A stretch of 64,000 nt of DNA, from assembly GCA_963833425.1 (NCBI GenBank), contig CAWHXP010000014.1, positions 50,454 through 114,453 of the forward strand, read 5' to 3'. Below the pieces are notes generated by a model. It was given only the letters and a program-made list of their open reading frames with translations. It was not told where the DNA came from and searched no databases. Shown piece by piece: positions 4,350-60,391 of the stretch. This stretch comes from an uncultured Methanosarcinaceae archaeon (GTDB lineage Archaea; Halobacteriota; Methanosarcinia; Methanosarcinales; Methanosarcinaceae). The position numbers and the translations under genes are program-made. Positions within the stretch are counted from its first letter, which is position 1. Every line of letters starts with the position of its first letter.

Positions 4350-5450
4350 ATGACAAAAATAAAAATAGCAATTGCAGGAATCGGGAACTGTGCAAGCTCT
4401 TTGATACAGGGCATTGAGTATTATAAAGCTGAACATAAAGAATCTATCGGGCTGATGCACTGGGATCTTGGCGGGTATAAACCCAAGGACATCAAAGTTG
4501 TCGCTGCTTTTGACGTTGATGCCAGGAAAGAAGGAAAAGATGTGGCTGAGGCTATCTTCGCTCCCCCTAACTGCACAACGATTTTTTGCCCGGACATTCC
4601 GGCCACAGGCGTGAAGGTTAAAATGGGTAGAGTTCTTGACGGCATCTCTGACCATATGAAAAATTATGAGGAAAGATATACTTTTGTTGTCAGCAAGGAA
4701 CAAGAAGCTACAAAAGCAGATATAGTAAACGAACTGAAGAATTCCGGCGCAGATATGCTTCTCAATTATCTACCTGTAGGCTCTGAAAAAGCAGTCCGTT
4801 TCTATGCAGAGTGTGCTCTTGACGCCAGAGTAGCTTTTATTAATAATATGCCTGTTTTTATCGCAAGCGATCCCGAATGGGCAAAAAAGTTTGAAGAAAA
4901 AAATATTCCGATAGTGGGAGATGATATTAAAGCTCAGTTAGGGGCTACAATTACCCACCGGATTCTTGCAGACCTTTTCGAAAAACGCGGCTTAAAACTT
5001 GACAGGACATATCAGCTGAATACTGGAGGAAACACTGATTTCCTCAATATGCTTAATAGGAGCAGACTTGCTTCCAAACGAGAATCAAAAACAGAAGCTG
5101 TTCAGTCCGTTCTCTCTCATAAACTTGAGAAAGAAAACATTCACATTGGACCTAGCGACTACGTAGCCTGGCAAAAAGACAATAAAGTATGTTTCTTGAG
5201 AATGGAAGGTCGGCTTTTTGGGGACGTGCCTATGAACCTTGAACTTCGGCTCTCTGTAGAAGACTCCCCGAACTCTGCAGGTGTTGTAATTGACGCTATT
5301 CGCTGCTGTAAGCTGGCTCTTGATCGTGGAATTGGTGGTGTGCTGTATTCTCCAGCATCCTACTTTATGAAACACCCTGCTATCCAATATCCTGACGATG
5401 AAGCCTACAGAAGGACTGAGGAGTTCATAGCCGGCACACGGAAACGTTAA
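4350..5450 (+). CDS. ino1: myo-inositol-1-phosphate synthase
   Basis: GIGNCASS, GDDIKAQLGAT, QLNTGGNTDFLNM, VEDSPNSAG motifs. Confidence 0.95.
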   Translation: MTKIKIAIAGIGNCASSLIQGIEYYKAEHKESIGLMHWDLGGYKPKDIKVVAAFDVDARKEGKDVAEAIFAPPNCTTIFCPDIPATGVKVKMGRVLDGISDHMKNYEERYTFVVSKEQEATKADIVNELKNSGADMLLNYLPVGSEKAVRFYAECALDARVAFINNMPVFIASDPEWAKKFEEKNIPIVGDDIKAQLGATITHRILADLFEKRGLKLDRTYQLNTGGNTDFLNMLNRSRLASKRESKTEAVQSVLSHKLEKENIHIGPSDYVAWQKDNKVCFLRMEGRLFGDVPMNLELRLSVEDSPNSAGVVIDAIRCCKLALDRGIGGVLYSPASYFMKHPAIQYPDDEAYRRTEEFIAGTRKR

Positions 5451-12593: not shown

Positions 12594-13725
12594 AGAGAAT
12601 TTCGATAACCTCCATGCTCTTGAGCATGGTTGACTTTAAATTTGTCAATATTTATGTATATTCATGAAAACTTTTACTGATTTTGCTCTTAAAGAAGAGT
12701 ATAAACGTTTTGAATCTGTTGGAGATAAGCTTGCTGAAATTGATTCCTTAATTGATTGGAAAACGTTTCGTATTATTCTTGAGTCTATGTATATTAACAA
12801 ATCCTTTTCAGTAGGGAGACCTGAAACTGATGTAATTGTGATGTTCAAAATGCTTGTTTTACAACAATGGCATGGTCTCTCTGATTTTGAACTTGAGAAA
12901 CAGTGTATAGATCGAATTTCTTTTAGGAAATTCCTTGGTTTTCCTGAATACATACCTTACAGTACTACTGTATGGCTATTTAGGGAGAGAATTAGCGAGA
13001 ATTTCAAAGAAAATATGGGGAAAGTTGCAAAGCCAACTTGATGCTCTGGGTTTACAGATAAAGCAGGGAATGATTCAGGATGTTACTTTTATCCATTCAG
13101 ATCCAGGACATGCAAAAGCAGAGAGATGAGACAAAAAAAGAAGAAGCAGAGACTGAACATGGACAAAGAAGGAGGTAAGTCTCACTTTGGATATAAGCGT
13201 CATAATATAATAGAAGAGATTATGAGCTGATCAGAAGATTCAAACAACAACTGCGTCAGTACATGATTCGTATGTAGATTTGACAGAGAAAAATGAAGTG
13301 GTTTATAGGGACAGAGGATACTTTGGAACAAAAACGGAAGGGTATAATGCATCAATGAAAAGAACAGTCAAAGGACATACGCTGGGAATAAAGGATATAT
13401 TAAGAAATAAGATCATTAGCTCAAAAAGATTCCAAGGGGAAAGAGTTTATTCAGTAACGAAAGAAATTTTCAAAGCAGGAAGAGTTTTTGTTACTACTGT
13501 TAAAAGAGTAAATCTAAAAATGTTGTGTACGGCTTTTTATTATAATCTCTATCAATTGAGGAAATTGAAAATAAAAAAAGTATATTGAAGATAGCGGAAG
13601 CTATCCTTAAAATCAAAGAATTGAGAATAAGTAAAGCCAAAAAGAGGAATTAAATAGAGAAATTGAGGGGGAGATATGAGAAATCACTGCTAAGAAATAA
13701 AATCTGAAGTTTATCGAAATCCTCT
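12594..13725 (+). mobile_element. IS5-family element with frameshifted transposase (copy 1)
   Basis: GRP..D, DRISFRKFLG, DRGY motifs split over ORFs 12664-13041, 12935-13129, 13280-13588; TIRs AGAGAATTTCGATAAC / GTTTATCGAAATCCTCT. Confidence 0.9.
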
Positions 13726-13975
13726 AAACTTTAATGATTATTACAATTCACTAAGTTTTACCTTAAATCAAGCATTATTTTCTATGATTGCTTCCCTTTC
13801 AAATTGTAAGGAGCGATGTGGAATAATCAAATGGCAATTAAACAAAAGAACGAATTGTTGCTATCGATGAAAAAATTAAACTGTCAAAGGCTTGAAAAAT
13901 TAAATTTGTTGTTTAGCACCTCGCTTTAAGCAACGGAGTATATGAAGTATCAAGTTCTGAGTATCAAGGAATTAT

Positions 13976-14410
13976 TCAAAATAAAATACTTTCATCTGCT
14001 CCTATGATTCATTTTCTTCTTTGTTTCCCTGGGAGCAATATAGTTTTATAATAATATCAGAAGTTGTAATAACATCAACAGTTTTAATGCATCTCCATCA
14101 CTTCAGAGTTAACAACCAAAAAGCTTTTTTAATCCCAGCGTGTTCTTTAAAGATTTTCTTTGCTTTTTTATAATCTAGATTATTATTAAATGAGACTATT
14201 TGTTTCAACACTAACTAAAAGATGTACACGATCACTATCTGTGTCTACAGTATCAAAATTAAAACAGTACTTTTTACCGATTTCAAAGCATATTTTGTAA
14301 ATAATTAAAAATGTCATCTTCTGAATGAAATTTTTTACGAGAATTCATACAAAAAAAACCAATGTTATATCCTATTTCATATACACAATTTTTGTATGCT
14401 GTAGTTTCAT
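13976..14410 (-). pseudogene. tnpA: IS200-type TnpA (Y1 HUH transposase) remnant
   Basis: Hand translation gives CFEIGKKYCFNFDTVDTDSDRVHLLV and KKIFKEHAGIKK, with stops and frameshifts; IS200-type end motif GCAAGCTGCGTGGTATTCGACTG near 14488-14510. Confidence 0.7.
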
Positions 14411-14773
14411 TTCATAACTCAAGGGTGGCTTAAAATATATCGCAATTTGTTAATATCGATTCCCGAGTAGGTTTCCATACTTGTGGCAAGCTGCGTGGTA
14501 TTCGACTGGAATCAAACTTAATACTCAAATTGCACTAAAAACAAATACTAAATCCTTAGAATAACATGCAATGAAACTATTTTTCGTCAAGAATTTTTTT
14601 GAACATTAACTCCATAGTTACTTTGGGCAGGAAATTTGTTCTAATTTTGGTTTTTCAAAACTCCTCGAAACTAATTCGTGAATTTCAATTGAAGGATCAA
14701 ATATGACTTAGATCACGGCTGTCAAGCCGCCTTTGAGGCAATTTTACTTCCCAAATAAGTTGAGTTATCTAAA

Positions 14774-15900
14774 TTGGAGAAACGGTAAACAATTTGTGTG
14801 GTTTAGAAGTCACAAATTTTTGTCTATTACTATTCTAGTATATCCGGTGAAAAATCACTCTTACGTTTCGCTAGACATGATGAAATTTTAGCTCTTAAAG
14901 GTTGAACATATCAGAAAAGTGTGATTTTTTGCATAAGAATCAACAAGTGACTTTTGGAATTCTATTTGTGATTTAATTGATAAGTCTTGTACTTATAGTC
15001 AAAGATGCACTAGATACGAAGGCCTCTATTTATAAAAAGACAGACAGTAAATTCAAAATTCTTTCTACAATTTGCACTTTAATGGCATGATATCAGGACT
15101 ACAAGTTTTTCCATAGGATCAAAAAGTTTCAATTATAAATTCAAATTTTACAGGCTTGTACAAAGAAGAACACCTATTTAAAAATGAAGCTATGTTATTC
15201 TAGAACCTGATGTGTTATAATATAAATAATGTGCTGACAGATATTTTTGGTAAAAAAGGTCTTTCAATTGCTACCATAAATCACGTATTTGTAATACTGT
15301 TGATCAAATTTTAGAAAATCTTTCTCCAAATATTCTTAAAAAAGGTGTTCAGATAAGAAAGGTTTCGGCAGCATAAATACCTCACGGAGCTGTAGGGTAA
15401 GAACATTAGAGAATAACTTTTTAATTATGTTTATTGGAAACATAACCTGAAATGAGTATTTTAATGTCAGTTTTGGATATTGGAAAAAATTGGCGCAGTA
15501 GTTCTAATTGCTGAAATAAATAGTTTCAAAGATTTTTTACCCAGAGGTAATCTTCATGGCTTTAGGATTTTCTGATTGTATATCAATTTGTAGATAAATT
15601 ATGCACATGGAGAATCACAAAGAGGTCACAAAAATGGCGATGTTGATTCTAAAGCAAATTGCTTAAGCAACAGCAAGAAAGAAAAATCACAAATTAAAAG
15701 AATTTTTTAACCGAAAGAAGGAATCAATTGGTCATGCAAAGAAAATAGTGCTCTAGTAAGGAAAATTGCCCCAATGATATGGCACCTGGTTATAAAGGAG
15801 GAGATATATGAAGATGAAAAATGACATGAAAATAGAGATTCAAGAAATGTGAATTGTTGAGAATGAAACCTTTTCGGTTGCTAAACGTATGAAAATGATA
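14774..15900 (+). pseudogene. IS110-family recombinase/transposase, heavily degraded
   Basis: Fragments ESTSDFW, KKTD, VLIAEI..FKDF, RITKR, FNRKKESIG, RKIAPMIWHLVIKEEIYEDE across shifting frames; end approximate. Confidence 0.75.
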
Positions 15901-16065
15901 GTAAAAATTGTAATTATTGGGGGAAGGGATAGAAAAGGTGTGAGGAATTAGTTTCTTCACGTACTTTTGTGTCAAATAAACTCTGAATCTATTTATATTG
16001 ATGAGAAGCTATGCAAGTATTAAATACTCTATAATCCGATTTCAATGTCACTATTTTAACTGGGG

Positions 16066-16132
16066 TTGAACGAGCGAGTTTGGGAGTGGGGGGGTTAGTA
16101 CATAAAAAAGTTTATATGGCTCGCCCGTTCAA
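16066..16132 (-). ncRNA. Candidate small hairpin RNA with C-rich loop
   Basis: 13-bp stem (one G-U pair, only on minus strand); TATA-like TATATAAA about 25 nt upstream on minus strand. Confidence 0.4.
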
Positions 16133-16324
16133 TTTTTTACAAGTATTTTGTTTTATATATACCTTTCTAAGTTTATCGAATTTATTTTTTTACAATTTCC
16201 AAATTTGTTCAATGGTTGTTCTGAAAGTTGACCCTTTTAAAAGATATCGTGTGCATAGAATTGCACGATTTTATAAAACTTTTTTATAACCACAAAGTTC
16301 TTAAATCCTGAAGCCATTAAACAA

Positions 16325-17327
16325 TAGGATTAAAAAGTGTGATGCGTAGGTATCTGTTTTGCCGAAATTCCTTTAAAGGTGGGCAGGAGCTGTGCTGTCA
16401 GGTCGTATCAATTAACAATTTCATTATTCATCATTGCTAAATTCGTAAAGACAACTTAATTTAATTAATTCGCATGCAAATCTACAAATTTTAGATTTAT
16501 ACCAAATCAGGCCAAATTTAAACCAGTAAAGTTAAAATTTATACTCATCACCCATGAAGTTAAAGTAAATGCGTGCTATCAATAAAAATGATGCATATTA
16601 TTTACTGCTTTATCACTTATCATTAGGGAGTTCCTTATTTGCGGGATTAGGCGTTTGGCACTCTTTTGATGCTCACGCACGGATTACCCGCTTTTCAGGG
16701 TCATTTATGGAAAATTTCAGTTATCGGGCATCGAAGATGAACACAAGTTTTAGCTTCTGGCTCTGAAGATTATTTTAGGGTCACGAATAAAACTTATGTT
16801 AGGGCGAGGGCTTTCGGGCATGTATAGAATACCTCAGGGATATCGTCGGTACTATTGGTGATTGGCTCAAAAGTCATCGTTTATCGACTCGAAAAGTTAG
16901 GATGTATACATTCAGGATAGCTGGGCTGGCACTTTACCTAGCTTTCATGAGGTAAGATCTCCATTATCTAGATCCATCCGGATATTTTTCGGGATCAGAT
17001 CCCCTGGAATAGGTAATGATGGTATTGAAGGCAGAGCTAGAGTTATCTTTCCGGTCGTAATTGTCATTAATTCTTAGATCTGCTTCTTCACGGGTGCACT
17101 ATCACTGATTCGGTATAAAATCTGATTTTTTACTATTTTTGCATTGTCTGAACCTTTACGAGTTTTCATGTATCGAAGATAGTTTTGTGTCTTAAGGCAA
17201 GTGGATTCAACGTCCAGAATATCAGTTGTATCGTAATTGTTCGGGGGCATTGAATAAATTTTCTTTGAGATTTTATTTGAAAAATTGTTCATGATGAATT
17301 ATTCACAATATTTCCAGGAGAATTTAT
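16325..17327 (+). ncRNA. Candidate large structured RNA / very long 5' leader of dnaG
   Basis: No credible ORF; visibly more GC-rich than flanking intergenic DNA; many nested helices with G-U pairs on + strand; TATA-like TTCTTAAAT near 16298; 5' end inferred. Confidence 0.6.
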
Positions 17328-18908
17328 ATGCAAAATACGGATACTACAAAGTATATTATCCATTCTAAAATTAATGCTGATGGTGTAATAGAACGCCCTG
17401 ATATCGTAGGCGCGATTTTTGGCCAGACTGAAGGATTACTTGGGGCTGATCTTGATTTGCGCGATTTGCAAAAAACTGGCAGAATTGGTAGGATAGAGGT
17501 AATGGTTACCGCTAAAGGTGGGAAGACCAAAGGGAATATCTTTGTCCCTTCAAGTCTTGATAAGGTTGAGACGTCTATTCTCGCCGCGTCTCTTGAAACT
17601 ATTGATAGGGTAGGTCCTTGCAGTGCCAAAATTGAGGTCTTTCAAGTAGAAGATGTCAGAGCTGTGAAGCGCAAAAAAATAATTGAAAGGGCAAAACTTA
17701 TCTTCACCAAAATGTTTGACGAGACTGTGCCTGAATCGCAGGAACTGGCTGATGAAGTTCGGCAGTCTGTAAGGGTTGATGAGCTTACTTATTATGGAAA
17801 ATCCAGAATTCCCTGTGGACCAAATGTTCTTAATTCTGATGCCATTATTATTGTGGAGGGGAGGGCTGACATCCTGAATCTCCTTCGCTATGGTATTAAG
17901 AATACTATTTGTGTGGGTGGAACAAATATTCCTCCTGAGGTTGCAGATCTTACTAAAAAGAAGACAGTAACTGCTTTTACGGATGGTGATCGTGGAGGCG
18001 AACTAATAGTTCGTGAGCTTTTGCAGGTAGCAGATATTGACTATGTTGCTCGTGCTCCAGATGGGAAATGTGTGGAGGACCTTGTCCAGAAGGAAATTAT
18101 CAGATCTCTTCGCCGAAAGGTTCCAGTGGAACAGATTATTGAAAAATATGGAATTCAGGAAAGGGAAATAGAAGAAGATGCCTGCAGGGTTGAAAGAATT
18201 CCAAAAAGGAAGGTTAGGGCACCTGAAATTGTTCCACGAATTGCGGAAAAGAAGCTGCACAAGCGTGTTAAAATACACAGGGTCTCCTCAAAGTCAGATT
18301 TATATGGAGAGAATCTTCCGAAAGAAGAAGAGATTGAAGGATTAGGTTATGGGAAAATATTTGAAGAAGTTCATGAAAAAATCCCGGAAAAGCTCCCAGG
18401 AAAAACTTTCGAAAAAGTATCTGGGAAAAATTTTCTCGTAACAGAACAAGTAGAAACAAGGCCTGTTGTCGCAAACTCAACGGTTTTGTCTAGGGCATCC
18501 CAGAAGGGCAAAGTTCCGAGAGGAAAACCTTCAAATGATCAGATTTCAGCCTTGAAGGTTCCTGGGGGTGAGGCTGTCAGAGTTTCTCCTGCCCCGGCAA
18601 GGATAGCATCTATTTCTCCCGAAGCCGTCAGGTTCAGGCCTCACGTTGAAGCTCTTAAAGGAACTCTTACGGCCAGAATTTTGGATCCTGATGACAGGGT
18701 GGTAGAAGAAATTGCAGTTCGGGATCTTGCCAGCAGATTGAAAGCCTATAAAGATGATGTTTTTAGTGTGGTTTTTGACGGTGTAATTACACAGAGACTT
18801 GTAGATATTGCCTCAAGCAATGCTATTAAGAGTCTTATAGGTATAAAAATTGGAAATCTTGCTAAAGTCCCGGTTGATCTGGAAATATTGACTTCTACAA
18901 CGCTATGA
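17328..18908 (+). CDS. dnaG: Archaeal DnaG (TOPRIM primase-like, exosome-associated)
   Basis: [31 protein letters not shown]-terminal [19 protein letters not shown] upstream. Confidence 0.97.
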
Positions 18909-19360
18909 GATGTTTTTCCCTTATCATTTAACTTTTTTACAATTTTTACTTTTGTTTATTTTTTGATTTTTAATAGTTTCTCTTTTTTATATGTATTATT
19001 TTATTTAGCATGTTACGATTGATTGTCCTTTTGTTTATTATAATTAATGTTCTTATTTCTTATTTGTTTTTTTGTTGTGTCTTTGAATCATGATCTTATC
19101 TGAAAAATGAGTATGTCTCTGATTTTTGGAAAAATCTAAAAAGAGTGTTATGTTTATAATTTATAAATAACCAATAGAAATCACCATTTTTTTTTCTAAA
19201 ATTAAAAGTCTCTAGATTTTATTTTTTATTTAACTTTAAGGCTGAAGACTCCTTTTTCAACACGCATCGATTGTAGGTATGGGATGATAGTAATCGATTT
19301 TCATTTTTTTTAAGATAGAAAATATGTAAATATTTGTAGTAGGTATTTAACATAATAACT

Positions 19361-19772
19361 ATTGGATATCATCTGGATCAATGGAGCTAGTTTGCTGTGC
19401 AATTAACTCTTATTTTGTTCAAGGGGTATGATAAATAGGAAAAATCATCATAGTCAAAGGATGATACATTTACTAATATATAGAATATATGATATAATTA
19501 ACACTTTGATGTAGAAGTTATAAGTGTTGATTATGATCTAAATCATTTCCACACGATTTTCACTTCAAAATCAACATCAGACATCCTTAAATATATCAAT
19601 ATTTTAAATACTATCTCTTCAAGAGAAATAAGAAAAGAATTTCCTGAAATTAAATTACTATTATGGGAAGATACCTCTTGGTCAAGATATATTTCATAGC
19701 AATAAATGGGCACGTGACATTAGATATTTTGATAAGGTACGTTGAACGTCAGAGCAAACGTGCAACTAACGA
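19361..19772 (+). pseudogene. tnpA: IS605-family TnpA remnant
   Basis: DLNHFHTIF (HUH), SREIRKEFPEIK, YVERQ; frameshifted. Confidence 0.75.
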
Positions 19773-20189
19773 AGAAAATACAAATTTATCAGACTGACTA
19801 ACAGATTGATGTTCTTTGGGAATTACTCGACAAATACAGGGTAGTTTGCGTCTTTGTTCTAGCAGATAAAAACGTGCTTATGAGGAGAAATGCTTATTGT
19901 AAAATGCGCTGAAAAGCAAAATAAACTTTCTGATTTCAAAAAACGTAATCCTGAATTCAGTGCAGATATTCAAAAAAACTCAAAGTATCTTGAAAATACT
20001 TGATAGTAGTTATCATTCTTTTTTTAGCAACATTAAAAATGGAGATTTGGAAGTACGACCATCTAACTTTAAATTTAGGAATTCTCTTATGACTTTGCCC
20101 TATAATTAAAGCAGTTCCAAGGTTGAAAATAATATATTTACATTTTCATATAAGGTAAATGATGTTCTTTTTCCTTTGGTAGTAATTTA
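19759..20189 (+). pseudogene. tnpB: IS605-family TnpB N-terminal remnant truncated by IS6
   Basis: MQLTKKIQIYQTD*QIDVLWEL..., overlapping the tnpA end; stops at IS6 IR; no RuvC region. Confidence 0.65.
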
Positions 20190-21043
20190 GGTTCCGTTGC
20201 AAAAAATTTTTTCTAATAATACAATAGAATAAAAAGAAAACCAAAGACAGTAATATGCTATCTAATTCCTTTAAATGGAAGCATTATGAAGGGGAAATTA
20301 TCCTATTAAATGTAAGATGGTACTTAAAATATCCATTAAGCTATAGAAATTTAAAGGAAATGATGGCAGAAAGGGGAGTAAAAGTCTACCATACAACAAT
20401 CATGAGATGGGTACATCAATATTCACCTGAAATAGAAAAGAAGATAAGAAGACATTTAAGGCTAACAAACTATTCGTGGAGAGTTGATGAAACCTATATC
20501 AAAGTAAAAGGTAAATGGGACTATTTTTATCGAGCAGTTGACTCAAATGGAGATACAATTGATTTCATGTTAAGTTCAAAACTAAATAGAAAAGCAGCGA
20601 AGAGATTCTTTAAGAAAGCTTTAAGTTTTAATCATAATCAAATTCCAAGATTAATAACCGTTGATAAGAATCCAGCTTATCCACCTGCTAGAGATTAACT
20701 GAAAAATGAAAAGAAATTGTCTAAAAATGTTGAAATTAGACAAATCAACTATTTGAATAATATTATAGAACAACATCACAGATCTATAAAGAGAATTGTT
20801 AATCCAATGTTAGGATTTCAGTCTTTTCAATCTGCTAATAAGACTTTAAAAGGAATTGAAGCTATGAATATGATCAAAAAAGGACAAGTAAATGATCTAA
20901 ATTACTCTGTTTTTAATGAAGTCAAATACATTAATCAATTGTTTGGTTTAATTTTATAATGTTAGTACATTTTCTTTGAATATTTTGATTTTTATTCATT
21001 ACTTATAAATTTACATATTTTTTGAATTTTTTGCAACGGAACC
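20190..21043 (+). mobile_element. IS6-family element, transposase split by internal stop
   Basis: IRs GGTTCCGTTGCAAAAAATT at both ends; WRVDETY, DKNPAY, NNIIEQ motifs in ORFs 20255-20698 and 20717-20959. Confidence 0.93.
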
Positions 21044-30913: not shown

Positions 30914-32035
30914 AGATAATTTAGATAACCTACATGCTCTTGAGCATGGTTGACTTTAAATTTGTCAATATTTATGTATATTCATGAAAACTTTTACTGA
31001 TTTTGCTCTTAAAGAAGAGTATAAACGTCTTGAATCTGTTGGAGATAAGCTTGCTGAAATTGCTTCCTTAATTGATTGGAAAACGTTTCGTATTATTCTT
31101 GAGTCTATATGTATTAACAAAACCGTTTCAGGAGGGAGACCTGAAACTGATGTCATTGTGATGTTCAAAATGCTTGTTTTACAACAATGGTATGGGCTCT
31201 CTGATTTTGAACTTGAGAAACAGTGTATAGATCGAATTTCTTTTAGGAAATTCCTTGGATTTCCTGAATACATACCTGACAGTACTACTGTATGGCTATT
31301 TAGGGAGAGAATTATCGAGAATTTCAAAGAAAATATGGGGAAAGTTGCAAAGCCAACTTGATGCTCTGGGTTTACAGATAAAGCAGGGAATAATTCAGGA
31401 TGTTACTTTTATCCATTCAGATCCAGGACATGCAAAAGCAGAGAGATGAGACAAAAAAAGAAGAAGCAGAGACTGAACATGGACAAAGAAGGAGGTAAGT
31501 CTCACTTTGGATATAAGCGTCATAATATAATAGAAGAGATTATGAGCTGATCAGAAGATTCAAACAACAACTGCGTCAGTACATGATTCGTATGTAGATT
31601 TGACAGAGGAAAATGAAGTGGTTTATAGGGACAGAGGATACTTTGGAGCAAAATCACAACGTTAATGAAAAGAGCAGTCAAAGGACATACGCTGGGAATA
31701 AAGGATATATTCAGAAATAAGATCATTAGCTCAAAAAGATTCCAAGGGGAAAGAGTTTATTCAGTAACGAAAGAAATTTTCAAAGCAGGAAGAGTTTTTG
31801 TTACTACTGTTAAAAGAGTAAATCTAAAAATGTTGTGTACGGCTTTTTGTTATAATCTCCATCAATTGAGGAAATTGAAAATAAAAAAAGTATATTGAAG
31901 ATAGCGGTAGCTATCCTTAAAATCAAAGAATTGAGAATAAGTAAAGCCAAAAAGAGGAATTAAATAGAGAAATTGAGGGGAAGATATGAGAAATCACTGC
32001 TAAGAAATAAAATCCGAAGTTTATCGAAATCCTCT
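30914..32035 (+). mobile_element. IS5-family element with frameshifted transposase (copy 2)
   Basis: Near-identical to 12594-13725, including the same ORF breaks. Confidence 0.9.
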
Positions 32036-32309
32036 TTAGATAATACAAGATTTTTATACGTTTTTAGTTTGGAAAATCCTGAATCTTACTTCCTCTAATT
32101 CGGGAATGAGGTAAATTCTCATCTCTTTTCATTTTAGTTCAACCACATTAATCATTTTTTGTAATTGAGTTTATTATTGGCCCAATGGTCAAAGATAGCG
32201 CCCCAAAATCTGATACGGATTTAATATGCATTGGAATTAAACAGCTTTAGTTATAGGTATGGCCAGATTATTATTACATAGAGTTGGTGACTACGTATTG
32301 GTACTATAT

Positions 32310-32397
32310 AGATGATTTCGACAAACCTCTGTATTTTCACCAGTCATTATGTACAACTAGGAATATATAAAAATTTTAGAGATTTGCCTAAAACTCA
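32310..32397. mobile_element. MITE copy (degenerate)
   Basis: AGATGATTTCGACAAACCTCTG start; internal match to family. Confidence 0.55.
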
Positions 32398-32881
32398 TAA
32401 AATTTATAGTGACTTAAGCATAATAATTACGTTCGAAACATAATTATTTTTAAACAATTAAATTAATTAACAACCATTTAGCTTGGCCAAAAAAATATCA
32501 ATAACCATATTTACTGAGATTCCTGAGCAAATTAAGATAGGCTGATTTGATTTAACTGGCGGTGATATATCATGTTTTTAATATTTGTATCACTTAGTAA
32601 GCAGAAATATTTGTTCTATTTAAATCAGCCTCTAACAAATTATTTTAAATATATTGAGCATTATATTAATTCGTTACTTAACAATATTTACGCTTAAGTA
32701 ACTAGAAATTATATAACCATATAAATAAAAAATATGGAGAAACTCCTCCCTGATTTCTTTCTTTTATTTTTGTGCTTTCCGTGGTTTCAACTTCGAATTT
32801 AGGTTTAGTATAGAGACGTAATAATTGACTATATTTCATTTTTCGAAGCTTTGAAGTGTTAATTTATACTGTGAAGATTAT

Positions 32882-32971
32882 AGAGGATTTCGATGGATCT
32901 CTAGATTTTGCCATATGCTTAGAATATTATATAAGAGGTTAAAAAAAATCAGAGGTTTTCCGAAACCTGCT
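32882..32971. mobile_element. MITE copy (reverse orientation)
   Basis: AGAGGATTTCGAT...ATCAGAGGTTTTCCGAAACC. Confidence 0.65.
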
Positions 32972-33178
32972 ACATCCGAAAATACCATACATCAAAGTGA
33001 TTTTTCAATATCATACTCGAAACATTTAGATAGTTAAATACTTATTACAGTAGTATACAGTGAAAAAGTTGAAAATCGTAGAAATTTCAATTCTAGCATT
33101 TTCAAGTACATTATACATATTTGCTAGCCATATAAATGAGATAAAAAATGATTTGGGGATACGATAGGAGATAATTGT

Positions 33179-33319
33179 ATGCTTTTCTTAAAAAAATGTC
33201 CCGAGTGCCACTCCGAGCTTGAAAACAATCTCTTCAAGGAATTTCAGTACTGCCCTATATGCGGGTACTGGACGAGAAAAGAAACTGCAAGACTTGAGCC
33301 ACTAATTATTTTGGAGTGA
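33179..33319 (+). CDS. 46-aa zinc-ribbon microprotein
   Basis: MLFLKKCPECHSELENNLFKEFQYCPICGYWTRKETARLEPLIILE; CPxC...CPxCG; RBS AGGAG upstream; below ORF-track cutoff. Confidence 0.75.
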   Translation: MLFLKKCPECHSELENNLFKEFQYCPICGYWTRKETARLEPLIILE

Positions 33320-33957
33320 AAATTTGATAAATTTTTCGTTTCATGAGTCATTATACATCATTTATAGGAATATAACAAAATTTTGGGATTTATTTAAATC
33401 TTTTAAAATATACATGTTTGAATCCTCTATTGAATGCATCAGATACCGTATATTATCCTAAGAAATGATCATCTTAAGAGAATTAATATAACTCAAGATC
33501 TAAGTATGTAGAAAATTGATTCTATGAAGACACAAATCGTGCACTTAATGATATTTCGTTTCCGAAAAAAAAACAATACGTTAAATTTGATTTTAAACCA
33601 ATTAAACTTAAATGTAGAAAACTTTTATACTCACAAAAATTAGTATTATCCTGAATAATTTCGCTTTGAAATTCTTTTTAATTTTCCAATTCTCACAATC
33701 TAAATAACCGAAATCTTATTCTAAATTGCTCTTACACTGACAATATTTTCCAGAAAGCATTTTCTGTTGATCCCGTTTCTCCAGGTTTAAAAGCCTTATA
33801 ATAAGTATTTATAGAAAAAAAATGAATAAGCTTTAGGAAGTAAATGAAGGAAAAAAAGAACACTAAAAGATGAATAAGAAGTGAAAAAGCCCTAATATAA
33901 GCAAAGGTATTTATAGAATCCGATTACAAAATCAGGGTTAGAAGAAATTCATATTAA

Positions 33958-34047
33958 TGAGGATTTCGATAAAAATCATGTTTTTACTAGTCAAGTATCT
34001 ACTATTTATGTGCATAAAATGAAATTTAGGGTTTATCGAAATTCTAT
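33958..34047. mobile_element. MITE copy upstream of histone gene
   Basis: GAGGATTTCGATAAA...TTTATCGAAATTCT. Confidence 0.7.
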
Positions 34048-34074
34048 AATATAAAATGTATATTGGAGGATAAT

Positions 34075-34284
34075 ATGGCAAAAGTGATACCATTCGCACC
34101 AATAGAACGCTTAATAAGAACTGCAGGTGCTCCTAGGGTAAGTGAAGGTGCAGGAATTGCTCTTACTGAAATTCTGGAGGATTATGGGCTTGGAATTTCA
34201 AAAGAAGCAATAAAACTTGCAGAACATGCAGGCAGAAAAACCATAAAAGCTGAAGATATCAAATTAGCAAAAGAAATGTTGTGA
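34075..34284 (+). CDS. Archaeal histone
   Basis: PFAPIERLIR..GA.RVS, AEHAGRKTIKAEDIKLA histone fold; GGAGG RBS before ATG 34075. Confidence 0.95.
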   Translation: MAKVIPFAPIERLIRTAGAPRVSEGAGIALTEILEDYGLGISKEAIKLAEHAGRKTIKAEDIKLAKEML

Positions 34285-34624
34285 TTGAAATTAGATCCTT
34301 TTAGCGGGTTTAAGATAGCTATCTACTTGAAGGAACAAGATAGAAATAGAATGCTGAAAAACGGCATTTTACTATTTTTGTCAAATATTTACTTATTTAG
34401 TTACGGATTCCATATCCAAATTGCAAGATCAACAGTATAAGAGGATCAAAATATTTACTTTTCATTGACTTTGCATTTACGAGCAAATGGAATAACAAAG
34501 TCTGCACTAAACAAATTTATTGAATTGAATTTTTTTATTTTCCTTGCCCATTAAAAGTTGCCTCAGAAATGAACATGAAATTGCCAGAATAAAGTACATA
34601 AATAAAAATGCCATTTATACTATT

Positions 34625-34870
34625 CTTTTTCGAAAGTGACGGCATCGCTATTTTGGCCAACAAGTTTGCTCTGATTATGATTTTCAAACCCATTTGAAAA
34701 CTAATAAGTTAATTGACACCTAAGACCCAAATTCGACTTTTACCACGGACATTAAATTTGCCTTTGAGGCAAATTTACTACCTAATGAATTGGTGGTTTA
34801 AATTAGCAGAAACAGTAAATAAGTTTTGTAGTTAGACATCCTCAAACATTTTTGAGTACTGTTTATCCTG
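34625..34870 (+). mobile_element. IS110 left non-coding end plus first transposase codons, cut by a MITE
   Basis: Homologous to 14595-14830 (shared CACGG...GCCTTTGAGGCAA.TTTACT); codes LAETVNKFC/LDILKHF. Confidence 0.6.
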
Positions 34871-34960
34871 AAAGGATTCCGATAAACTTCAAGATTCGTC
34901 ATGTGGATAATAAGAATATATGAATTGCCAGTGAGAGTCAGAGATTTATCGAAACCCTCT
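34871..34960. mobile_element. MITE copy (reverse orientation)
   Basis: AAGGATTCCGATAAAC...TTTATCGAAACCCTCT. Confidence 0.7.
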
Positions 34961-35058
34961 AAAGAGTACTTTTTTGTTGAACTAGACAACAAATGCTTCT
35001 TGTGAATTAAATTATGACATGATGTTGTGTAAAACACTATTTATAAAGAAGAAATGTT

Positions 35059-36062
35059 GGCTCTGTAGAAATGCTCTAAATTGAACTTTTACTATAGTAT
35101 TATAACTATTCCGTTCTAATATTTTCTTATTTTTTCGCTAAAAACGAAGGAACATTCGATATTGAAATTTAGTAAGTACATTCAATTTGTTGATACCAGC
35201 CTTGAAACTGTTCAATCTTCGAGACTGAAACTTTCTTCCAGAAAGTATTCAAAACACTTTTAGACCCAGCATCAGCTTCTTGTACTAGGTTTTATTGAAA
35301 AGTATATTAGTACAGGCTATCGAGATTTTGTAGAACTCATTGACCTTATGAGCGATATAAAAGAAAAACTTGGTCTTGATAAGATTCCATATTTCACTAC
35401 CTTCAAAAGTTTGTAACCAGGATTCCCTATTCTCTGTTTAACTTTCTTCGGTCAAGGATTCTAAAGCTGTTTTACTCATATGTAGAAAATTTTTATGTTG
35501 CAGCGATTGATGCAACAGGATTTACGAGTTCGTATGTAAGTTATTATTATTCCAGAAGAACAGAGAAGCTTCGAAGAAGCTTCCTGAGAATTTCAATATC
35601 AGTAGATACAAGTAAAAAGGTAATATTGGATGGAAAATTAATCAAAAAACAGAAACAGACCATGAAATCAAACATGTAAGTGCTCTGATAAGGCAATTAA
35701 ACAAGATGAGAAAGTCTGATTGTTATGTAATGGATAAAGGATACGATTCTGAAAAAATACATTCTATAATTAGAAAATAAATCAAAGCAGATTCAATTAT
35801 ACCTGTAAGAGAGAGAAAAAGGAAGAAAATAAGTGGAAAATACAGAAAACAATAGAACCTGATCTGTGACAAAATTAAATATAATCAAAGAAATATTGTG
35901 GAGACGATATTTTCTGTAGTTAAAAGAAAATTAGGAGAAACACTTAGGGAAAGGAAATTCCGTTATCAAATAAAAGAGATTAAAATTAAATTAATAATAC
36001 ACAACATAAACAAAAAAAATTATAGAAATAATTTGCATCAAATAGAGGATTTCTACAGAACC
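35059..36062 (+). mobile_element. IS5-family (ISH1-like) element with inactivated transposase (copy B)
   Basis: Near-identical to 27961-28965; perfect 8-bp TSD GAAATGTT (35051-58, 36063-70). Confidence 0.9.
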
Positions 36063-36491
36063 GAAATGTTATCATTTACATATATTAGAAGTTTCTTATC
36101 ACAAAACGCCTTGTGGACAAGCTATTAGATTTATGATAATTTACTACAAAAGATTTACTAATGTTCATTTCCACCATAGATAGCTACTTGATTTTTCAAA
36201 GTCAGAGCAAATAAGAAATACAGCGCTATACCTCATCGGTAATAATTCACTAATTAATTTAATTTTTGAAATCTAATTATTATTCAAAGTAAATATTTAC
36301 CATCAAGCCACTCATATTCTACAATCACGAGAGTAAGGAGGACAGGGATAATAGCATCTTAAATTTTATAACCATGAAAAACACGAAAAAAAAATTTAAT
36401 TTCGAAAATTAATTCTTTCATTAGTCCTCCAGAGCATAGCGAGAATAACATACTCGCGAAGCGTAATTATGGAACCTTGTCAGAACAGAAT

Positions 36492-36890
36492 TTAAAACTC
36501 TAATTCTGTTACTTTTTCTCCTTTTGCACTAGTAATAATTAAATATATATTTTCAAACCTCGGAATTTCATTGACGCAAATTTCGTCTGAGACAAGCATA
36601 TTTGACCAAGGACTTTTAGGCATATATGCAATTCCTCTATGATGAGGTTCGTACCCTGATTCTTCAGCCCTGACTACAACTCTCCCAAAAGAATTTTTCA
36701 GGATGACAGTATCGCCTTGTTTTACACTTAATTGCTTGAGATCTGCAGAATCAAGTTTTATTACAGCAGACATATTTTTATACTCTTCTCCGAAAAGGTT
36801 TTCTATCATTGCTTTATCCTGAAAAATATCCCTGTAGGTTACAACTTTGACCTTTATTTCAGGAGCTGCAAGAAAAGATCCAAAATCCAT
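36492..36890 (-). CDS. fwdD: Formylmethanofuran dehydrogenase subunit D (molybdopterin dinucleotide-binding)
   Basis: TYRDIFQ, GRVVVRA, YMPKSPWSN; overlaps the end of subunit B. Confidence 0.8.
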   Translation of the reverse strand: MDFGSFLAAPEIKVKVVTYRDIFQDKAMIENLFGEEYKNMSAVIKLDSADLKQLSVKQGDTVILKNSFGRVVVRAEESGYEPHHRGIAYMPKSPWSNMLVSDEICVNEIPRFENIYLIITSAKGEKVTELEF

Positions 36891-53155: not shown

Positions 53156-53649
53156 TTTATTGTTTCCTCCATGTTTGCTAAGATATTTTGTATGCAAGAA
53201 AAAGTGTCGGGATCAACACTTTTGGGGTTTCACCATTCTTCATCAAATAAGACTCATAAATTTCGTCTATTGTCGAAAAGAATTTCATTCCCTCTTTTAT
53301 CCTTCTGAATTGGATTACAAGTGTAATAAAATAATTGCCTTATTAAATCTTTTGTGGTCTATTTCAGGGAATTTGAACAGGAAAAGCGCAAAACAACGAT
53401 ACAAATAACGGTAAATGTCGAAAGAACTCAAGCAGAATATTTTTTAGAAGTTAACATCAACGATAAAAGTCTAAATACATATCGAATACTATGGAAAAAA
53501 GAAGCTATATTTAAAAGAGTTTAAACTAAATAATTTAAGACACTACTAATTTAAGAAATATAAAAAGTAAGGCTGCTAATTACTGCATTTCAAAAATTTG
53601 GTAAGCCCAAAACTACCACATTCTTAGCAAAATTTCAGTTGATTTCTAT

Positions 53650-53739
53650 AGAGGATTTTAAAAACTTCTAAATTTCGTCATGTGCTTATAAATTTTATAA
53701 ATATTATTCTTGAAAACTAGATGTTTATCGAAATCAACT
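53650..53739. mobile_element. MITE copy (reverse orientation)
   Basis: AGAGGATTTTAAAAAC...GTTTATCGAAATC. Confidence 0.65.
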
Positions 53740-55199
53740 ATAGATTATTCTTCTAACTTTCATTTGAATCCTATCTGATAGTAACACTGAAAAGTATGCT
53801 TTTTGGGTGTTAAAGAGAGAAAATATGTTCGCGGGATATCTTGGCAGTGTCGCAAATATGATGGAAATATAAGTCAAGCATTTATTATACTGCGTGTAAT
53901 TTTGTTCTCCATATTTAAATTTTTCACCAATAACTTATTGAGAGTTATGATTTTACAGAAAAATATGCATTCTGCTAACACTACCCTAAATCAATGGTTT
54001 TTCAATAGAAAATTTGCACTGATCTTGAACAATTAAGTAGTTAACATTTTTTACAATTAAGTTTCCATTGTAATGATTGTTTACGTTTTAATGCATTTAA
54101 GCAGGTCTGCTCTAGCTAAACTTGCTTGAGCACGAAAGAAAAAAATCGAAAACAGTACTAGGTAACTTTTGAAAAATAGCATTAAGAATAAAGCTTAAAG
54201 AGCGAAAAATAATCTGGTCTTAAATTGTTAAAAATAATGAACACAAGACTCTTTCTACATTTCTCCAAAATTGGAGTATACGCGTTTTTCAGATTTAATC
54301 ACTGATAAGTCCTAATTTTTAAAAAACAGGAAAAAATTGCGTTGTATTCGGTAAACAATTTAGAAATTTATTGCGAGTACTTCTATCATTTTTATAATAT
54401 AAGTCCAAAATGATGTGTTCTTCTTTTTTGTATAAAATATCTATGAAATATTAGAAATTGACGATATAAAATATTAAATATAATAGGCATACTATGAAAA
54501 TGTGTAGTACAAATCATAAAGTAGTATTGATAGATTAGCAACAACAAAAAATCCAAACCAATATGAATCTGATACTAGAAAATAAACTACTCACTCTTGT
54601 TGCTTCATAGCTAAGAAGTTACTTTTTAGATTTTCTTTTCTTGGAAGATGTCTTAAACTCGTTCCCGCATTTCATAAGTGTTAAGTTTTTAGTAACCTGT
54701 GATATTTAAGCGAAAACGTCTCAATTCTTATAACGCATTTATGCCCTTATAATGTCTCTTCTTACAGCCAGTAGAGAAAAAAAATCTAGATACTTCAGCA
54801 TTAGAAAAATTATGTATTCTTCGAATGTTACACGCTCTATAGGAAGATGTCTCTAACTGCCATCCCAATAAGTTTGTATCTAAAAGTCCTGCTTTACACT
54901 TTAAGTTTGTTACAAAATTTTTCTATACGAAATTTTTGATGGCTTGAGCCAAATAATGTTCTTTCTGGCTATCTTTAACTTTTAGATTTTCCCGATCTAC
55001 ATCTTGATCAGCTAATGTTTCGACAATTAAATTATTTTCATAATAATTTCAAACCTCGAACCCATAGGATCATCACAAGAAGTTTTTTAATACATAATCC
55101 ACCCTTCCACAGATCTCGCTGCAAAAATGGTATTTTTCAAAATTTATTCTCATAATATTTATTTTTTTAATTAAATTCAAGTTTGCAATTCCAATTACC

Positions 55200-55810
55200 A
55201 CCCTTGAGTCAACATCCATTTTTACTTATGTAAACCCCTTAATCAGAATTAAAACCCATTTAAATACTGGTTTTTGAGTTTGTTTCTTAATTTTGCCTAG
55301 TATTGTTTTCCTATTTTTTTCAGCCCTTTTCAGCTTTCTTTCTGCAACAAATCAAAGATCTGGAAGATTTTGTCCTTTATTAAATTTGAACTACTTTTAC
55401 ACATTACTCTGGTTTTTGTAGCGCTCTATCATCGTTTACAGCTCCAAGATTAAGGTCATTGCCTGAGAGTAGAAAAACTTCAATCATGCTTTTTTAATTC
55501 AATGCAATTTTTTAATTCCTGACTGCTTTTGAGTTTACAACATGTAAAAGAGAAGGTTTTCAGATTTCTTTGGCCCTCTTATTTTTTTTCGACTTTTGAT
55601 ATTTTTAAAATATCCAAGCTTTCCAACAAACCGTAATCTTGTCATTTCCTCGGCTTTTTGCTACTTTTTTGGCGTCCTCTTCATAAGCAAACTTCTTCTT
55701 CATCAGTTTTTGAGATCTTTCAGGGATTGAGTAATTATTCTCTGGAGCTTCTTTCCAAAATTAATGCCCTTTTTTCTATATCGCAGTAAAGCGAACGACT
55801 AGGCACCATG
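55200..55810 (-). pseudogene. IS1634-family transposase C-terminal remnant
   Basis: KLMKKKFAYEEDAKK, ERYKNQSNV, AERKLKR, KKQTQKPVFKWV fragments. Confidence 0.6.
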
Positions 55811-56229
55811 AATCTTGTCAAGGGTTCGCCCTAATACATCACTATTAAGGTAAAATATACTGATTAAGACAAAAAAATTATTTCAATTAAAATGCTTCCA
55901 AATTACTGAAAGTATATATAAAGGCAACTGTCGAGTAGACAAGGTGATTGAGATACATTACTTTTATTAAATAGAATGAGTTAACTTGTGCTGCCCAAGT
56001 TTTGGAATACCTCATCAATCATTTTTCCAATTTCAAGTTCGCAATAAATGCCAGAACAATTCTTTGATGATCACGGAAAGCGTTACAACAAAATAAGAAA
56101 ATCTGAATAAAGGTTTCATATTTTAGATATTTACTTATTTATAGGAAGTGAATAAAATTGATAGGTACCTGTGGAAGATAGATACCGTAATATGTGAGAA
56201 TTAAACAGATATAGTAAAAATTCACAGTT

Positions 56230-56320
56230 AGAGAATTTCATTAAACATCTAATTTCCAAGAATAATTTATGTACCTTTCATGAGCATACGACAAAATTTA
56301 GATGTTTATCAAAATGTTCC
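56230..56320. mobile_element. MITE copy (degenerate)
   Basis: AGAGAATTTCATTAAAC...GTTTATCAAAAT; internal GAGCATACGACAAAATTTAGA. Confidence 0.6.
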
Positions 56321-56560
56321 TTATTTAGATAGACAAACTGATTTTGTATGGCACAGTCCAGTATTGATATATGAAGTAATTTGAAATATAAATTAGTTAG
56401 TTAACAATGATTTTTGGGGAAATTTACATCCTACAGGAGCTGGGGTATTCGACTGAAATAAAATCAACCAATCAAAATTTACTCATTTAATCTTATTCAA
56501 ATGTAGTTATTGAGATTGATATTTGTATTATTTTGTCCAAGCTGAATGGTTTTATATTTT

Positions 56561-57088
56561 TCAGTTTTCTTCACCTTTTTCTTTCAGGTAATAAACCCAG
56601 TCACCATGCTCTATTATTCCTGTTTCAGGTTTTTTATCACAAACGTAAATGATGCCTCTGATCTTTTTCTCCCCTATTTCAAGATCTAAGTATTCCCTGT
56701 GGTACCCCCCGAAAAGTTCCATATAATCGATGGATTTTGCTACTTCAAGCTGCTTTTTTCCAGAAAACCTACGCACTTCGGCGATCACAGAAAACCCTTC
56801 TAAAGGGTATATTCCTGGGTATGGACCCAGAGAGTAAAGGGCATATCCTCTTACTTTTGTCGTACCAATAAATTCAGACATGTTTTGCAAGGAGAAACGC
56901 CTGCTATTGTAGAGATCGACCCTGAGGCTACCATAGAATACCATGATTATATCCTCGTCTCCCATCCTATGGTAAGATCGCTTCCAACAGATATTCCTGT
57001 GAAAAACACCCCCATAAAGAGTACTGCCCTTTATTTCGCTGTTTAGTGCTTCATACTTGCTTAGGATATTCTCGAAATTTTTTCCCAT
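56561..57088 (-). CDS. Gamma-glutamylcyclotransferase (AIG2-like) family protein
   Basis: FYGSLR, LYSLGPYPG, IEHGDW. Confidence 0.85.
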   Translation of the reverse strand: MGKNFENILSKYEALNSEIKGSTLYGGVFHRNICWKRSYHRMGDEDIIMVFYGSLRVDLYNSRRFSLQNMSEFIGTTKVRGYALYSLGPYPGIYPLEGFSVIAEVRRFSGKKQLEVAKSIDYMELFGGYHREYLDLEIGEKKIRGIIYVCDKKPETGIIEHGDWVYYLKEKGEEN

Positions 57089-58307: not shown

Positions 58308-59100
58308 AGTGGTCCCTTATATATATAGTATTTATCTTGATATTGTCGAATTAACTCATTTTTGCATGTGTCAAAACCCATTTTCACTCAAATTGAAGAC
58401 CATTTTGTGAATTTTTACCTTTCCATTTTAGTTCTTATATTTTCGTCTTAATTATAAACTATCATTGATCCAAACGTAGTATTTTTTTTGCTAGAAAATA
58501 GAACACATGCCAGTAACCATAGCACAAATTTAGGTTTCTAATCAGAAAATAATTATGAATAGCTCAATCTGCTTACTCTTTCCTCTATTCCGAACTCATC
58601 ATTTTGATTTAAAATTTTAGCAATTCCCCAAGCATAAACACTCTTCAAAGGATCATTGATACTTGAGTATCCATACGAGAACAAGAAGTGAAATCTTATA
58701 AATCTTGTCGAATTTTATATTGTACTACAGTAAAACAAGATCAAAAGCATTACAAATACCACATGATAGTGTCGTGAAATTTAATTTCTCACCATGTAGT
58801 ATGCCATTCTCAAGTTTCCTCTTACATCCGGAATGATCTCTAAATCCATATCTTGAGCTCTGTATTTTTGCAAGTTTACTGATGAAGTATCCTCAAAAAC
58901 ATTGCATGTTGAGTATTTAATTATTTCATTTGATTCCTAGTCTTTGCTGATGAGAAACCATAATGGCTTCTCAAAAAGCAAGTCATGCTGAAATCTCCAA
59001 AGTTTTATAGCTTTAAAATCGACTTTTTGTACTATTAATTTCAAGAAAATTCAATACTTAAAACTTTTCCTATTTGGGATTATGTGTAGTTCTCGAGGGT

Positions 59101-59935: not shown

Positions 59936-60099
59936 AAGTTAAATTACTTTACACAAACCTTCTTTTTGATAAAAATGTATAACATATTAATAAAAGAAAA
60001 GCAAATAGAAAGCCATTTCGTGCAAGCAGTACAGCTGATAATCTAAAAGATAAAAAATAGCTTTAAATTCTCTGGCAGAATTATTATTAGTAGGTATAT

Positions 60100-60345: not shown

Positions 60346-60391
60346 ATTTTATAGCCGGGGTAACTCTAGTTATCTTAACCTATCAAGATGT

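Follow-up and report, generated by a model that had tools for sequence, protein, structure and literature searches.

A conserved kilobase of noncoding DNA ahead of dnaG in Methanosarcina apparently gives a folded leader RNA

What occupies the roughly 1,000 bases that precede dnaG in Methanosarcina, and what has kept it there? The question is raised by a 64,000-nt stretch of DNA from an uncultured Methanosarcinaceae archaeon (contig CAWHXP010000014.1; herein the window, whose positions serve as coordinates throughout), in which 13588-17328, up to the start of dnaG, holds no open reading frame (ORF) of ≥100 aa. Archaeal DnaG is a primase-like protein and an RNA-binding subunit of the exosome. 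An earlier note, made from the letters of the window alone, had proposed that 16325-17327 encodes a large multidomain RNA. The window DnaG has 77 related loci in Methanosarcinaceae genomes (individual loci carry L-numbers; the best is 94% identical, which places the window in a Methanosarcina species absent from the genomes compared), and comparison with these indicates that the ∼1,000 bases before dnaG are a noncoding stretch kept across the genus and apparently giving a folded RNA on the strand of the gene. The reading that we favor, to which we give an about even chance, is that 16325 to ∼17145 (possibly to 17327) is a + strand structured leader RNA of ∼0.8 to 1.0 kb that acts in cis on dnaG.

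A blastn search of the 77 loci with 13500-17327 as the query aligned 16062-17327 upstream of dnaG in 50 of them. Except in the four closest relatives, the matches all start sharply at ∼16054 through 16067, and many reach the start of dnaG. The main alignment comprises 49 sequences (the window and 48 Methanosarcina loci; 36 sequences in the nonredundant subset), with an occupancy of 0.9 to 1.0 nearly throughout. Four-fold degenerate sites within dnaG codons 1 to 300 were used as the neutral yardstick. Identity to the window over 16062-17327 is 0.57 to 0.89, compared with 0.34 to 0.80 at the four-fold sites, and the leader is the higher of the two in 48 of 48 loci (typical values, 0.72 and 0.52); the region singled out by the earlier note is thus kept across the genus. 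Identity drops from 5′ to 3′ (∼0.88 over 16062-16200, 0.80 over 16280-16500, 0.72 over 16540-16860, and 0.66 over 16900-17160). Conserved hairpins had been expected to run up to the ribosome-binding site (RBS); instead, the rate over 17160-17290 is close to that of four-fold sites (identity 0.44 to 0.83), with a rise again beside the RBS, and this near-neutral stretch serves as an internal control for the conservation test. Past the 3′ end of dnaG, 18909-20254 can be aligned in no loci but the five closest, so noncoding DNA is not generally conserved at such depth.

Linkage of the element to dnaG is constant across species: in addition to its presence in 50 of 77 loci, it remained with dnaG in the clade of the window even though the ancestral upstream gene was lost at ∼16062, and its promoter block recurs in five Methanococcoides loci. 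In other Methanosarcinaceae, the 0.6 to 1.4 kb before dnaG is likewise free of ORFs of ≥100 aa and is usually preceded by the same divergent oxidoreductase gene. The body of the leader was not detected outside Methanosarcina and two related metagenome-assembled genome (MAG) loci with two covariance models (R1 and R2, described below) or an nhmmer profile. Methanococcoides leaders cannot be aligned with the Methanosarcina leader and carry conserved hairpins of their own, and leader length goes from ∼1,000 nt in Methanosarcina to ∼620 nt across genera.

This conservation is not that of a protein gene. The longest stop-free frames in 16325-17327 are 50 to 74 aa; no frame of ≥30 codons is open in ≥33 of the 49 aligned sequences on either strand of 16200-17327; substitution entropy has no period-3 signal (power ratio ≤1.4 in all 20 sliding windows); and ten six-frame fragments have no Pfam match (one chance hit, E = 0.12). 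With neither a conserved frame nor codon periodicity nor family similarity to mark a coding gene or pseudogene, the statement that the region has no credible ORF is borne out, and a decayed protein gene is ruled against. Read-through of TAG (as pyrrolysine) or TGA was considered and rejected, as no consistent long frame results. The region is also richer in GC than neighboring intergenic DNA, as had been noted (0.40 to 0.44 over 16700-17099; 0.26 at 16100-16299 and 0.31 at 17100-17299).

Folding energies and substitution patterns both point to the + strand. The + strand of 16326-17145 (820 nt) folds to −210.3 kcal/mol (z = −2.86), as well as which none of 20 dinucleotide shuffles folds; the − strand reaches −167.9 kcal/mol (z = −1.39; 1 of 20 shuffles as good). 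For the 3′ half in eight relatives, the + strand has the lower minimum free energy in seven of eight (z = −0.7 to −5.0). Across five domains, alignment cells with G·U far outnumber those with A·C (181/25, 153/36, 61/22, 65/27, and 92/26; a 2.4- to 7-fold excess), which in every domain favors the + strand as the RNA. The strand that the earlier note had chosen, and the advantage over shuffled controls that it would need, are therefore both found.

Single-sequence folds mapped onto the alignment agree in their local architectures across the three clades, and the multidomain RNA of the earlier note survives as several shared local stem-loop domains (Table 1). As far as sequence comparison can carry it, the firm part of the case for structure is the shuffle-based count of changed pairs for D3b and D4, in which compensatory changes exceed those of the shuffled and slid controls. 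In D3b (fitted alignment; 89.8% paired versus ≤56.9% when partners are slid), 18 of 31 pairs have changed on both sides compared with 8.7 ± 2.0 in shuffles (0 of 500 as high; 5 to 9 pairs when slid), and cells changed on both sides number 36 versus 13.4 ± 3.4 (0/500); on the unfitted 17-sequence MAFFT seed, the count is 9 pairs versus 5.2 ± 1.6 (14/500). Model R2, built on D3b, matches 28 of 78 sources, all on the + strand and syntenic. The window itself is not matched, and its own fold retains the outer helices of D3b; the inner hairpin (∼16922-16926), present in most relatives, has been lost from the window and from its four closest relatives alike. In D4, the three helices in 17029-17106 are 86.2% paired on the plain 36-sequence MAFFT alignment (≤56.5% slid), and both partners have changed in 9 of 17 pairs, compared with 4.0 ± 1.6 (1/500); the hairpin 17091-17094/17103-17106 is weakened in the window.

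The other domains are shared by pairing. The architecture of D3a recurs in single-sequence folds of 36 sequences, and on the fitted alignment the domain is 91.4% paired (≤45.9% slid). Model R1, built on D3a, matches 39 of 52 sources, in each case at the syntenic + strand site (window, 46.5 bits, E = 1.6e-8); at a wider E ≤ 1 it adds three weak true sites and two spurious − strand matches. D2, which comprises hairpins Ha and Hb, is 80.2% paired on the unfitted alignment (≤60.4% slid) and has 30 cells changed on both sides versus 16.6 ± 3.0 in shuffles (0/500). Pair 24/39 of Ha is C-G in 23 of 36 sequences and U-A in 7 of 36; in Hb, 86.6% of cells are paired and five of nine pairs have changed on both sides. 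The 5′ half has an identity to the window of ∼0.80 over 16280-16500, a positive A/T skew at 16400-16599, and an RNAalifold signal that is weak or zero; its candidate hairpin D1 is 90.3% paired (≤45.5% slid).

The nested architecture with long-range closing helices that the earlier note had drawn is a different matter: it fails when followed pair by pair through the 49 sequences. Ten of its 11 helices do pair fully in the window, and only two hold in relatives. The first, 16775-87/17184-95, is broken, with three mismatches already in the window. Three pairs of 16820-26/16905-11 are kept in only 4 to 9 sequences, those of 16962-70/17010-18 in 2 to 35, three pairs of 16578-82/16666-70 in 7 to 10, and the outer half of 16570-75/16674-79 in 8 to 10; 16813-19/17146-52 and 16914-22/17041-49 are weak in relatives. 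Two more (16845-51/16882-88 and 16857-63/16872-78) depend on a 20-nt insertion at 16880-16899 that is absent from ∼44 of the 49 sequences; the insertion is shared with the closest relatives of the window. The helix 16934-39/16950-55 stands, with five pairs kept in 38 to 45 sequences and 90.2% pairing in 17 sequences; its covariation is no higher than in shuffles, and it may form as an alternative to two D3b-model helices with which it competes. The helix 16789-95/17160-66 is also kept (29 to 49 sequences; 83.7% paired), with no convincing covariation, and, having an A-run opposite a T-run, remains 65% paired after a shift of one position.

Rfam 15, whose families include riboswitches, C/D sRNAs, and the OLE, GOLLD, and ROOL RNAs, has no match at gathering thresholds in the 64-kb window or in 10 related loci, and permissive filters on 15900-17500 return three chance-level matches (E = 1.1 to 4.7) far below gathering scores; the assertion that the RNA is none of RNase P, signal recognition particle RNA, or a group I or II intron is thus in keeping with the database. 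Two lines of analysis were given up. Stem-voting and hairpin-conservation scans had no discriminating power, with the null reaching 33 to 36 of 36 sequences in A/T-rich DNA. The conserved TCTCCTGG (near 17001-17010) was considered by eye as a possible anti-Shine-Dalgarno sequence and set aside because clade C has a different, noncomplementary sequence at that position.

The promoter-like block 16289-16305 is nearly invariant in the 49-sequence alignment, unique in the window, and coincident with the TATA-like box that the earlier note had placed near 16298; from the archaeal promoter consensus, we take the block to be a TFB recognition element (BRE) followed by a TATA box. Allowing ≤2 mismatches, five Methanococcoides loci have the 17-nt block at 607 to 646 nt upstream of dnaG, and MAG loci L041 and L045 have it too (in total, 7 of the 27 non-Methanosarcina loci examined). 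A transcript start is implied by data from Methanosarcina mazei Gö1, in which dnaG is MM_1295 (1537324-1538892, minus strand) and the divergent MM_1296 starts at 1540365. A supplementary ribosome-profiling (Ribo-seq) table lists three “intergenic” small ORFs (sORFs) on the dnaG strand in the gap upstream of dnaG: sORF_139 (27 aa, 1539524-1539607, 632 to 715 nt upstream of dnaG), sORF_140 (66 aa, NC_003901.1:1539736-1539936, marked “leaderless,” with its start 1,044 nt upstream of MM_1295), and sORF_141 (1540150-1540188) (PMC11456600). The start of sORF_140 maps through the alignment to 16325, which is also where the earlier note began its RNA, and the “leaderless” label implies that transcription starts at the homolog of this position.

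At the other end, identity reaches 0.93 over 17120-17139, across much of a double U-tract. Archaeal termination uses oligo-U, and these tracts are a candidate archaeal terminator or attenuator. The archaeal mechanism, treated in PMC8716108, relies on U-tracts and aCPSF1 and not on a hairpin terminator. The spacer beyond (17145-17280) has taken large insertions in several relatives: just past its conserved CTTTACGAGTT block, L007 has a ∼70-nt insertion of repeated units (∼4793-4855, homologous to ∼17167 of the window), and clade B loci have a different 10-nt insertion at the same point. The GGAGAA before the dnaG ATG does not vary among the aligned sequences displayed. Just upstream of the RBS, at 17281-17312, are repeats of a TTCAYRAT(A)AAT-like motif (approximately two copies in the window and ≥4 in L023; also seen in L028, L036, L040, and L043), and the conserved 5′ half has a similar TTCATC..ATTCATCA pair at ∼16420-16435; the repeats may bind a protein or form a proximal promoter.

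Table 1. Features of the dnaG leader region, in window coordinates
Feature	Position	Strand	Description
Promoter-like block ACCACAAAGTTCTTAAA	16289..16305	+	Purine-rich BRE-like part and TATA-like TTCTTAAA, ∼20 to 27 nt before 16325
M. mazei transcript-start equivalent	16325..16327	+	Start codon of sORF_140 (“leaderless”) mapped by alignment; TAG in window
5′ half	16328..16640	+	Most sequence-conserved part, A/U-rich, little demonstrable structure
D1 candidate hairpin	16337-16343/16402-16408, 16346-16348/16395-16398, 16360-16363/16378-16381	+	Unfitted alignment
Hairpin Ha (D2)	16686..16701	+	ACCCG / AGGGT in window; counted with Hb on plain MAFFT alignment
Hairpin Hb (D2)	16759..16782	+	GGCTCTGAA / TTTAGGGTC
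D3a	16804..16876	+	Three stacked helices forming one long irregular hairpin
D3b	16899..16963	+	Long hairpin of stacked helices; inner hairpin deleted in window
D4	16964..17125	+	Hairpin near 16975-16993; helix 17029-17035/17079-17085 around hairpin 17037-17042/17049-17054; hairpin 17091-17094/17103-17106
Two U-tracts	17126..17140	+	T6 at 17126-17131 and T5 at 17136-17140, within most conserved 3′ block (AATCTGATTTTTTACTATTTTTGCAT)
Spacer	17145..17280	+	Variable and indel-rich, except short conserved CTTTACGAGTT block near 17153-17165
Conserved A/T-rich block before dnaG	17281..17327	+	TTCAYRAT-type repeats and Shine-Dalgarno GGAG (17317-17320)
dnaG	17328..18908	+	526 aa, Toprim domain (Pfam Toprim_4, E = 1.3e-9)

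What the comparison shows at this locus is sequence conserved above the neutral rate and free of a coding signal, a strand bias, helices that relatives share and that covary in part, and a constant linkage to dnaG. In the cis-acting leader that we favor, transcription on the + strand would begin at the conserved archaeal promoter 16289-16305, and the product would be a long noncoding leader RNA physically tied to dnaG. Its A/U-rich 5′ third, conserved mainly as primary sequence, would include a short leaderless upstream ORF in most relatives, not in the window, and its 3′ two-thirds (∼16686-17125) would fold into a string of local stem-loop domains. We infer that transcripts may either stop at the double U-tract (17126-17140) or read through into dnaG, and that the folded domains, or factors bound to them, could set the ratio of stopping to read-through and/or the stability and translation of dnaG messenger RNA; attenuation and any effect on dnaG are proposals of the same kind.

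Several points weigh against this reading. The number of pairs changed on both sides is not significant in D3a (6 versus 6.0 expected; 318/500 shuffles), in D2 (8 versus 6.7; 126/500), or in D1 (4 versus 3.0; 177/500). Plain RNAalifold on the 36 nonredundant sequences gives zero energy in 11 of 16 + strand windows and no structure in D3a, D4, or D2; a consensus emerges only in a 17-sequence subset with RIBOSUM scoring (−28.7, versus −8.4 with default scoring), and clade-wise RNAalifold overpredicts in small clades. Because the helices were read off single-sequence folds of the same sequences, the percentages paired are inflated relative to the slid controls, and two of the alignments (A5 and A7) are fitted to the models. 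The window copy is without the start codon of the upstream ORF and without one inner hairpin, and its D4 hairpins are weakened, so it may be partly degenerate. A 5′ untranslated region (5′UTR) of ∼1 kb would be twice as long as the longest reported for the related Methanolobus psychrophilus (497 nt; PMC5378194). In the M. mazei table the sORFs are labeled “intergenic” and not “5′UTR,” which a separate transcript fits equally well (PMC11456600), and the U-tracts, the neutral spacer, and the conserved block on the RBS side could equally be a full terminator followed by a proximal dnaG promoter.

These last points belong to a serious, if less probable, alternative: an independent, trans-acting or scaffold-type structured RNA of ∼0.8 kb (16325 to ∼17140) with its own promoter and U-tract terminator, dnaG being expressed from a proximal promoter in 17281-17310 and the adjacency of the two being historical or a matter of shared regulation. 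The conserved promoter with its implied transcript start would suit such an RNA, as would multidomain folding with covariation. So would the layout of the 3′ side, where the best-conserved block is the double U-tract, followed by near-neutral sequence and then by a second conserved A/T-rich block ∼20 to 45 nt before the dnaG start codon; and the authors of the Ribo-seq table do class the sORFs as intergenic (PMC11456600). A short conserved block at 17153-17165, however, lies beyond the U-tracts. Between genera, moreover, what persists is the promoter block and its place ahead of dnaG; the sequence transcribed from it cannot be aligned and changes in length from ∼1,000 to ∼620 nt. Selection on a trans-acting RNA should preserve the RNA sequence itself and not only the promoter, and this turnover thus counts against independence; the persistence of promoter and position tips the balance toward a cis role for dnaG.

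Doubtful as yet, in our judgment, is a more ambitious form of the leader, in which this ∼0.8-kb RNA, kept through Methanosarcina and with a counterpart under the same promoter in Methanococcoides, would represent a large multidomain “ornate” RNA class, the first specific to archaea, that senses a signal or binds DnaG or the exosome and gates dnaG by regulated termination at the U-tracts. A related and unlikely special case, of either the cis leader or the independent RNA, makes the transcript a DnaG/exosome ligand that mediates autoregulation of dnaG. The exclusive linkage to dnaG would fit, an A-rich 5′ half might favor binding by a protein with a reported preference for poly(A) (PMC4227792), and an exosome operon exists in the same family (PMC5378194). 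No known DnaG-binding motif was identified in the leader, however, and its structured domains are not A-rich; DnaG/exosome autoregulation is pure conjecture.

It is very improbable that the conservation reflects small proteins, with the region serving as messenger RNA for sORF_140 and sORF_139. Both sORFs passed manual Ribo-seq curation in M. mazei and sORF_140 has a proteomics identification; the BlastP column of the same table reads “no” for all three, and the main text does not mention them (PMC11456600). The ATG of sORF_140 has an equivalent in 40 of the 49 sequences, and many of these share a 17-codon version of the ORF (MNLKHVTHRVPHLPxFL-like). Neither frame nor length is conserved, however: the ORF that begins at the aligned ATG runs for 5 to 62 codons (most often 17), its frame shifts in several lineages, and the start itself is TAG in the window. 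None of the 49 sequences has an equivalent of sORF_139, and codon periodicity is lacking. The short leaderless ORF may matter in many species; covering ∼50 of ∼1,000 nt, it cannot explain a kilobase of conservation. Finally, a DNA-level element (regulatory or origin-like), a decayed gene, or chance is hardly tenable and already largely refuted: the broken transposase genes nearby suggest that decay is common here, and divergent promoters do share the intergenic region, but conservation above neutral in 48 of 48 loci, the strand-asymmetric G·U excess, the compensatory changes, the lack of a Pfam signal, and the transcript evidence in the M. mazei table (PMC11456600) all stand against it.

On the opposite strand, 17074-17292 holds a 72-aa antisense ORF that is not conserved and lies at roughly the position of MM_RS06730 in M. 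mazei (matched by position alone). In the Ribo-seq source data, MM_RS06730 has an RNA baseMean of ∼1 and a translation efficiency of 0, compared with a baseMean of 780 for dnaG (PMC11456600), in keeping with transcription on the dnaG strand; annotation of this antisense ORF is probably spurious.

The surroundings of the window copy have been rearranged. Broken transposase genes lie on both sides of the dnaG region, at 12664-13588 and 20255-20698 (DUF772 and DDE_Tnp_1 in two frames; an IS240-type DDE). Synteny breaks at ∼16062: in most Methanosarcina loci the genes upstream are a divergent pyridine-nucleotide-disulfide oxidoreductase and an RNA 3′-phosphate cyclase (as in L010 and L028), and in the window these are replaced by ∼2.3 kb without ORFs of ≥100 aa (13723-16061). 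This replacement is common only to the window, L002, L003, L004, and L049, at near-neutral identity, and in L002 its counterpart contains an IS200-like transposase ORF. Other long stretches of the window without an ORF of ≥100 aa are 31361-36492, 53408-56561, and 58307-60971.

A separate, very conserved hairpin (16066-16138) lies ∼190 nt upstream of the leader promoter. Its arms (16066-16078 and 16120-16132) enclose a 41-nt G-rich loop, and T6 comes next. No other part was found by nhmmer outside Methanosarcina (hits to the hairpin in L056, L059, L060, and L067; motif matches in L063, L064, and L067), and Methanococcoides retains the stem in other bases. The single A·C mismatch of its + strand is G·U on the − strand, with the mismatch position shifted in L040, and RNAalifold favors the − strand (−16.6, z = −13, versus −7.4). 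A BRE/TATA-like TATATATAAAAC faces the − strand way, toward the ancestral divergent gene. The footprints of M. mazei sORF_141, however, are on the dnaG strand (PMC11456600).

Among known systems, the long 5′UTRs of Methanosarcinales are the closest comparison. In Methanolobus psychrophilus, differential RNA sequencing gives 5′UTRs with a median length of 55 nt and none longer than 497 nt, and noncoding leaders are common in the order (PMC5378194). As proposed, the dnaG leader resembles these as a noncoding leader from an upstream archaeal promoter on the strand of its gene, and differs from them in its length (∼1,000 nt; ∼1,044 nt in M. mazei), its conservation across a genus, and its several shared stem-loop domains (compare PMC5378194). 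In M. mazei, sRNA154 is proposed by the authors of PMC11456600 to be a dual-function RNA with a leaderless sORF, and the dnaG leader of most relatives likewise seems to have a leaderless short ORF at the 5′ end of an otherwise noncoding RNA. M. mazei sORF_139, sORF_140, and sORF_141 are at the same locus in a sister species; they are listed there as isolated ORFs (PMC11456600), whereas the comparison here indicates that RNA sequence and folding, and not the ORFs, are conserved.

Comparison with bacteria is less close. Bacterial attenuating leaders (ribosomal-protein leaders, T-box, and riboswitch-terminator units) are structured and end in a U-rich stop signal before the gene, as the dnaG leader may; the dnaG leader is far longer and has no known ligand or protein partner. 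The bacterial OLE, GOLLD, ROOL, and raiA RNAs likewise run to several hundred nucleotides with many helices amid highly conserved nucleotides. Unlike them, the dnaG leader is archaeal, always lies directly upstream of one gene, and has no covariance-model match; its covariation is much thinner, and what has been demonstrated is a chain of local hairpins and not a global fold. We know of no biochemical function for any of these four classes, or for the dnaG leader.

To our knowledge, archaea have yielded few examples of long structured regulatory RNAs, and no leader of such length has been described in Methanosarcinales. The dnaG leader seems so far undescribed as an RNA element and unusually long for an archaeal leader; the only trace of it that we found in the literature is the three sORF rows in PMC11456600. 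A kilobase of selected noncoding sequence before dnaG points to an unrecognized layer of control for this gene, and three “small ORFs” of M. mazei may be footprints on a noncoding RNA and not genes. The case can be tested in genetically tractable Methanosarcina, for which M. mazei Ribo-seq and RNA-seq data already exist.

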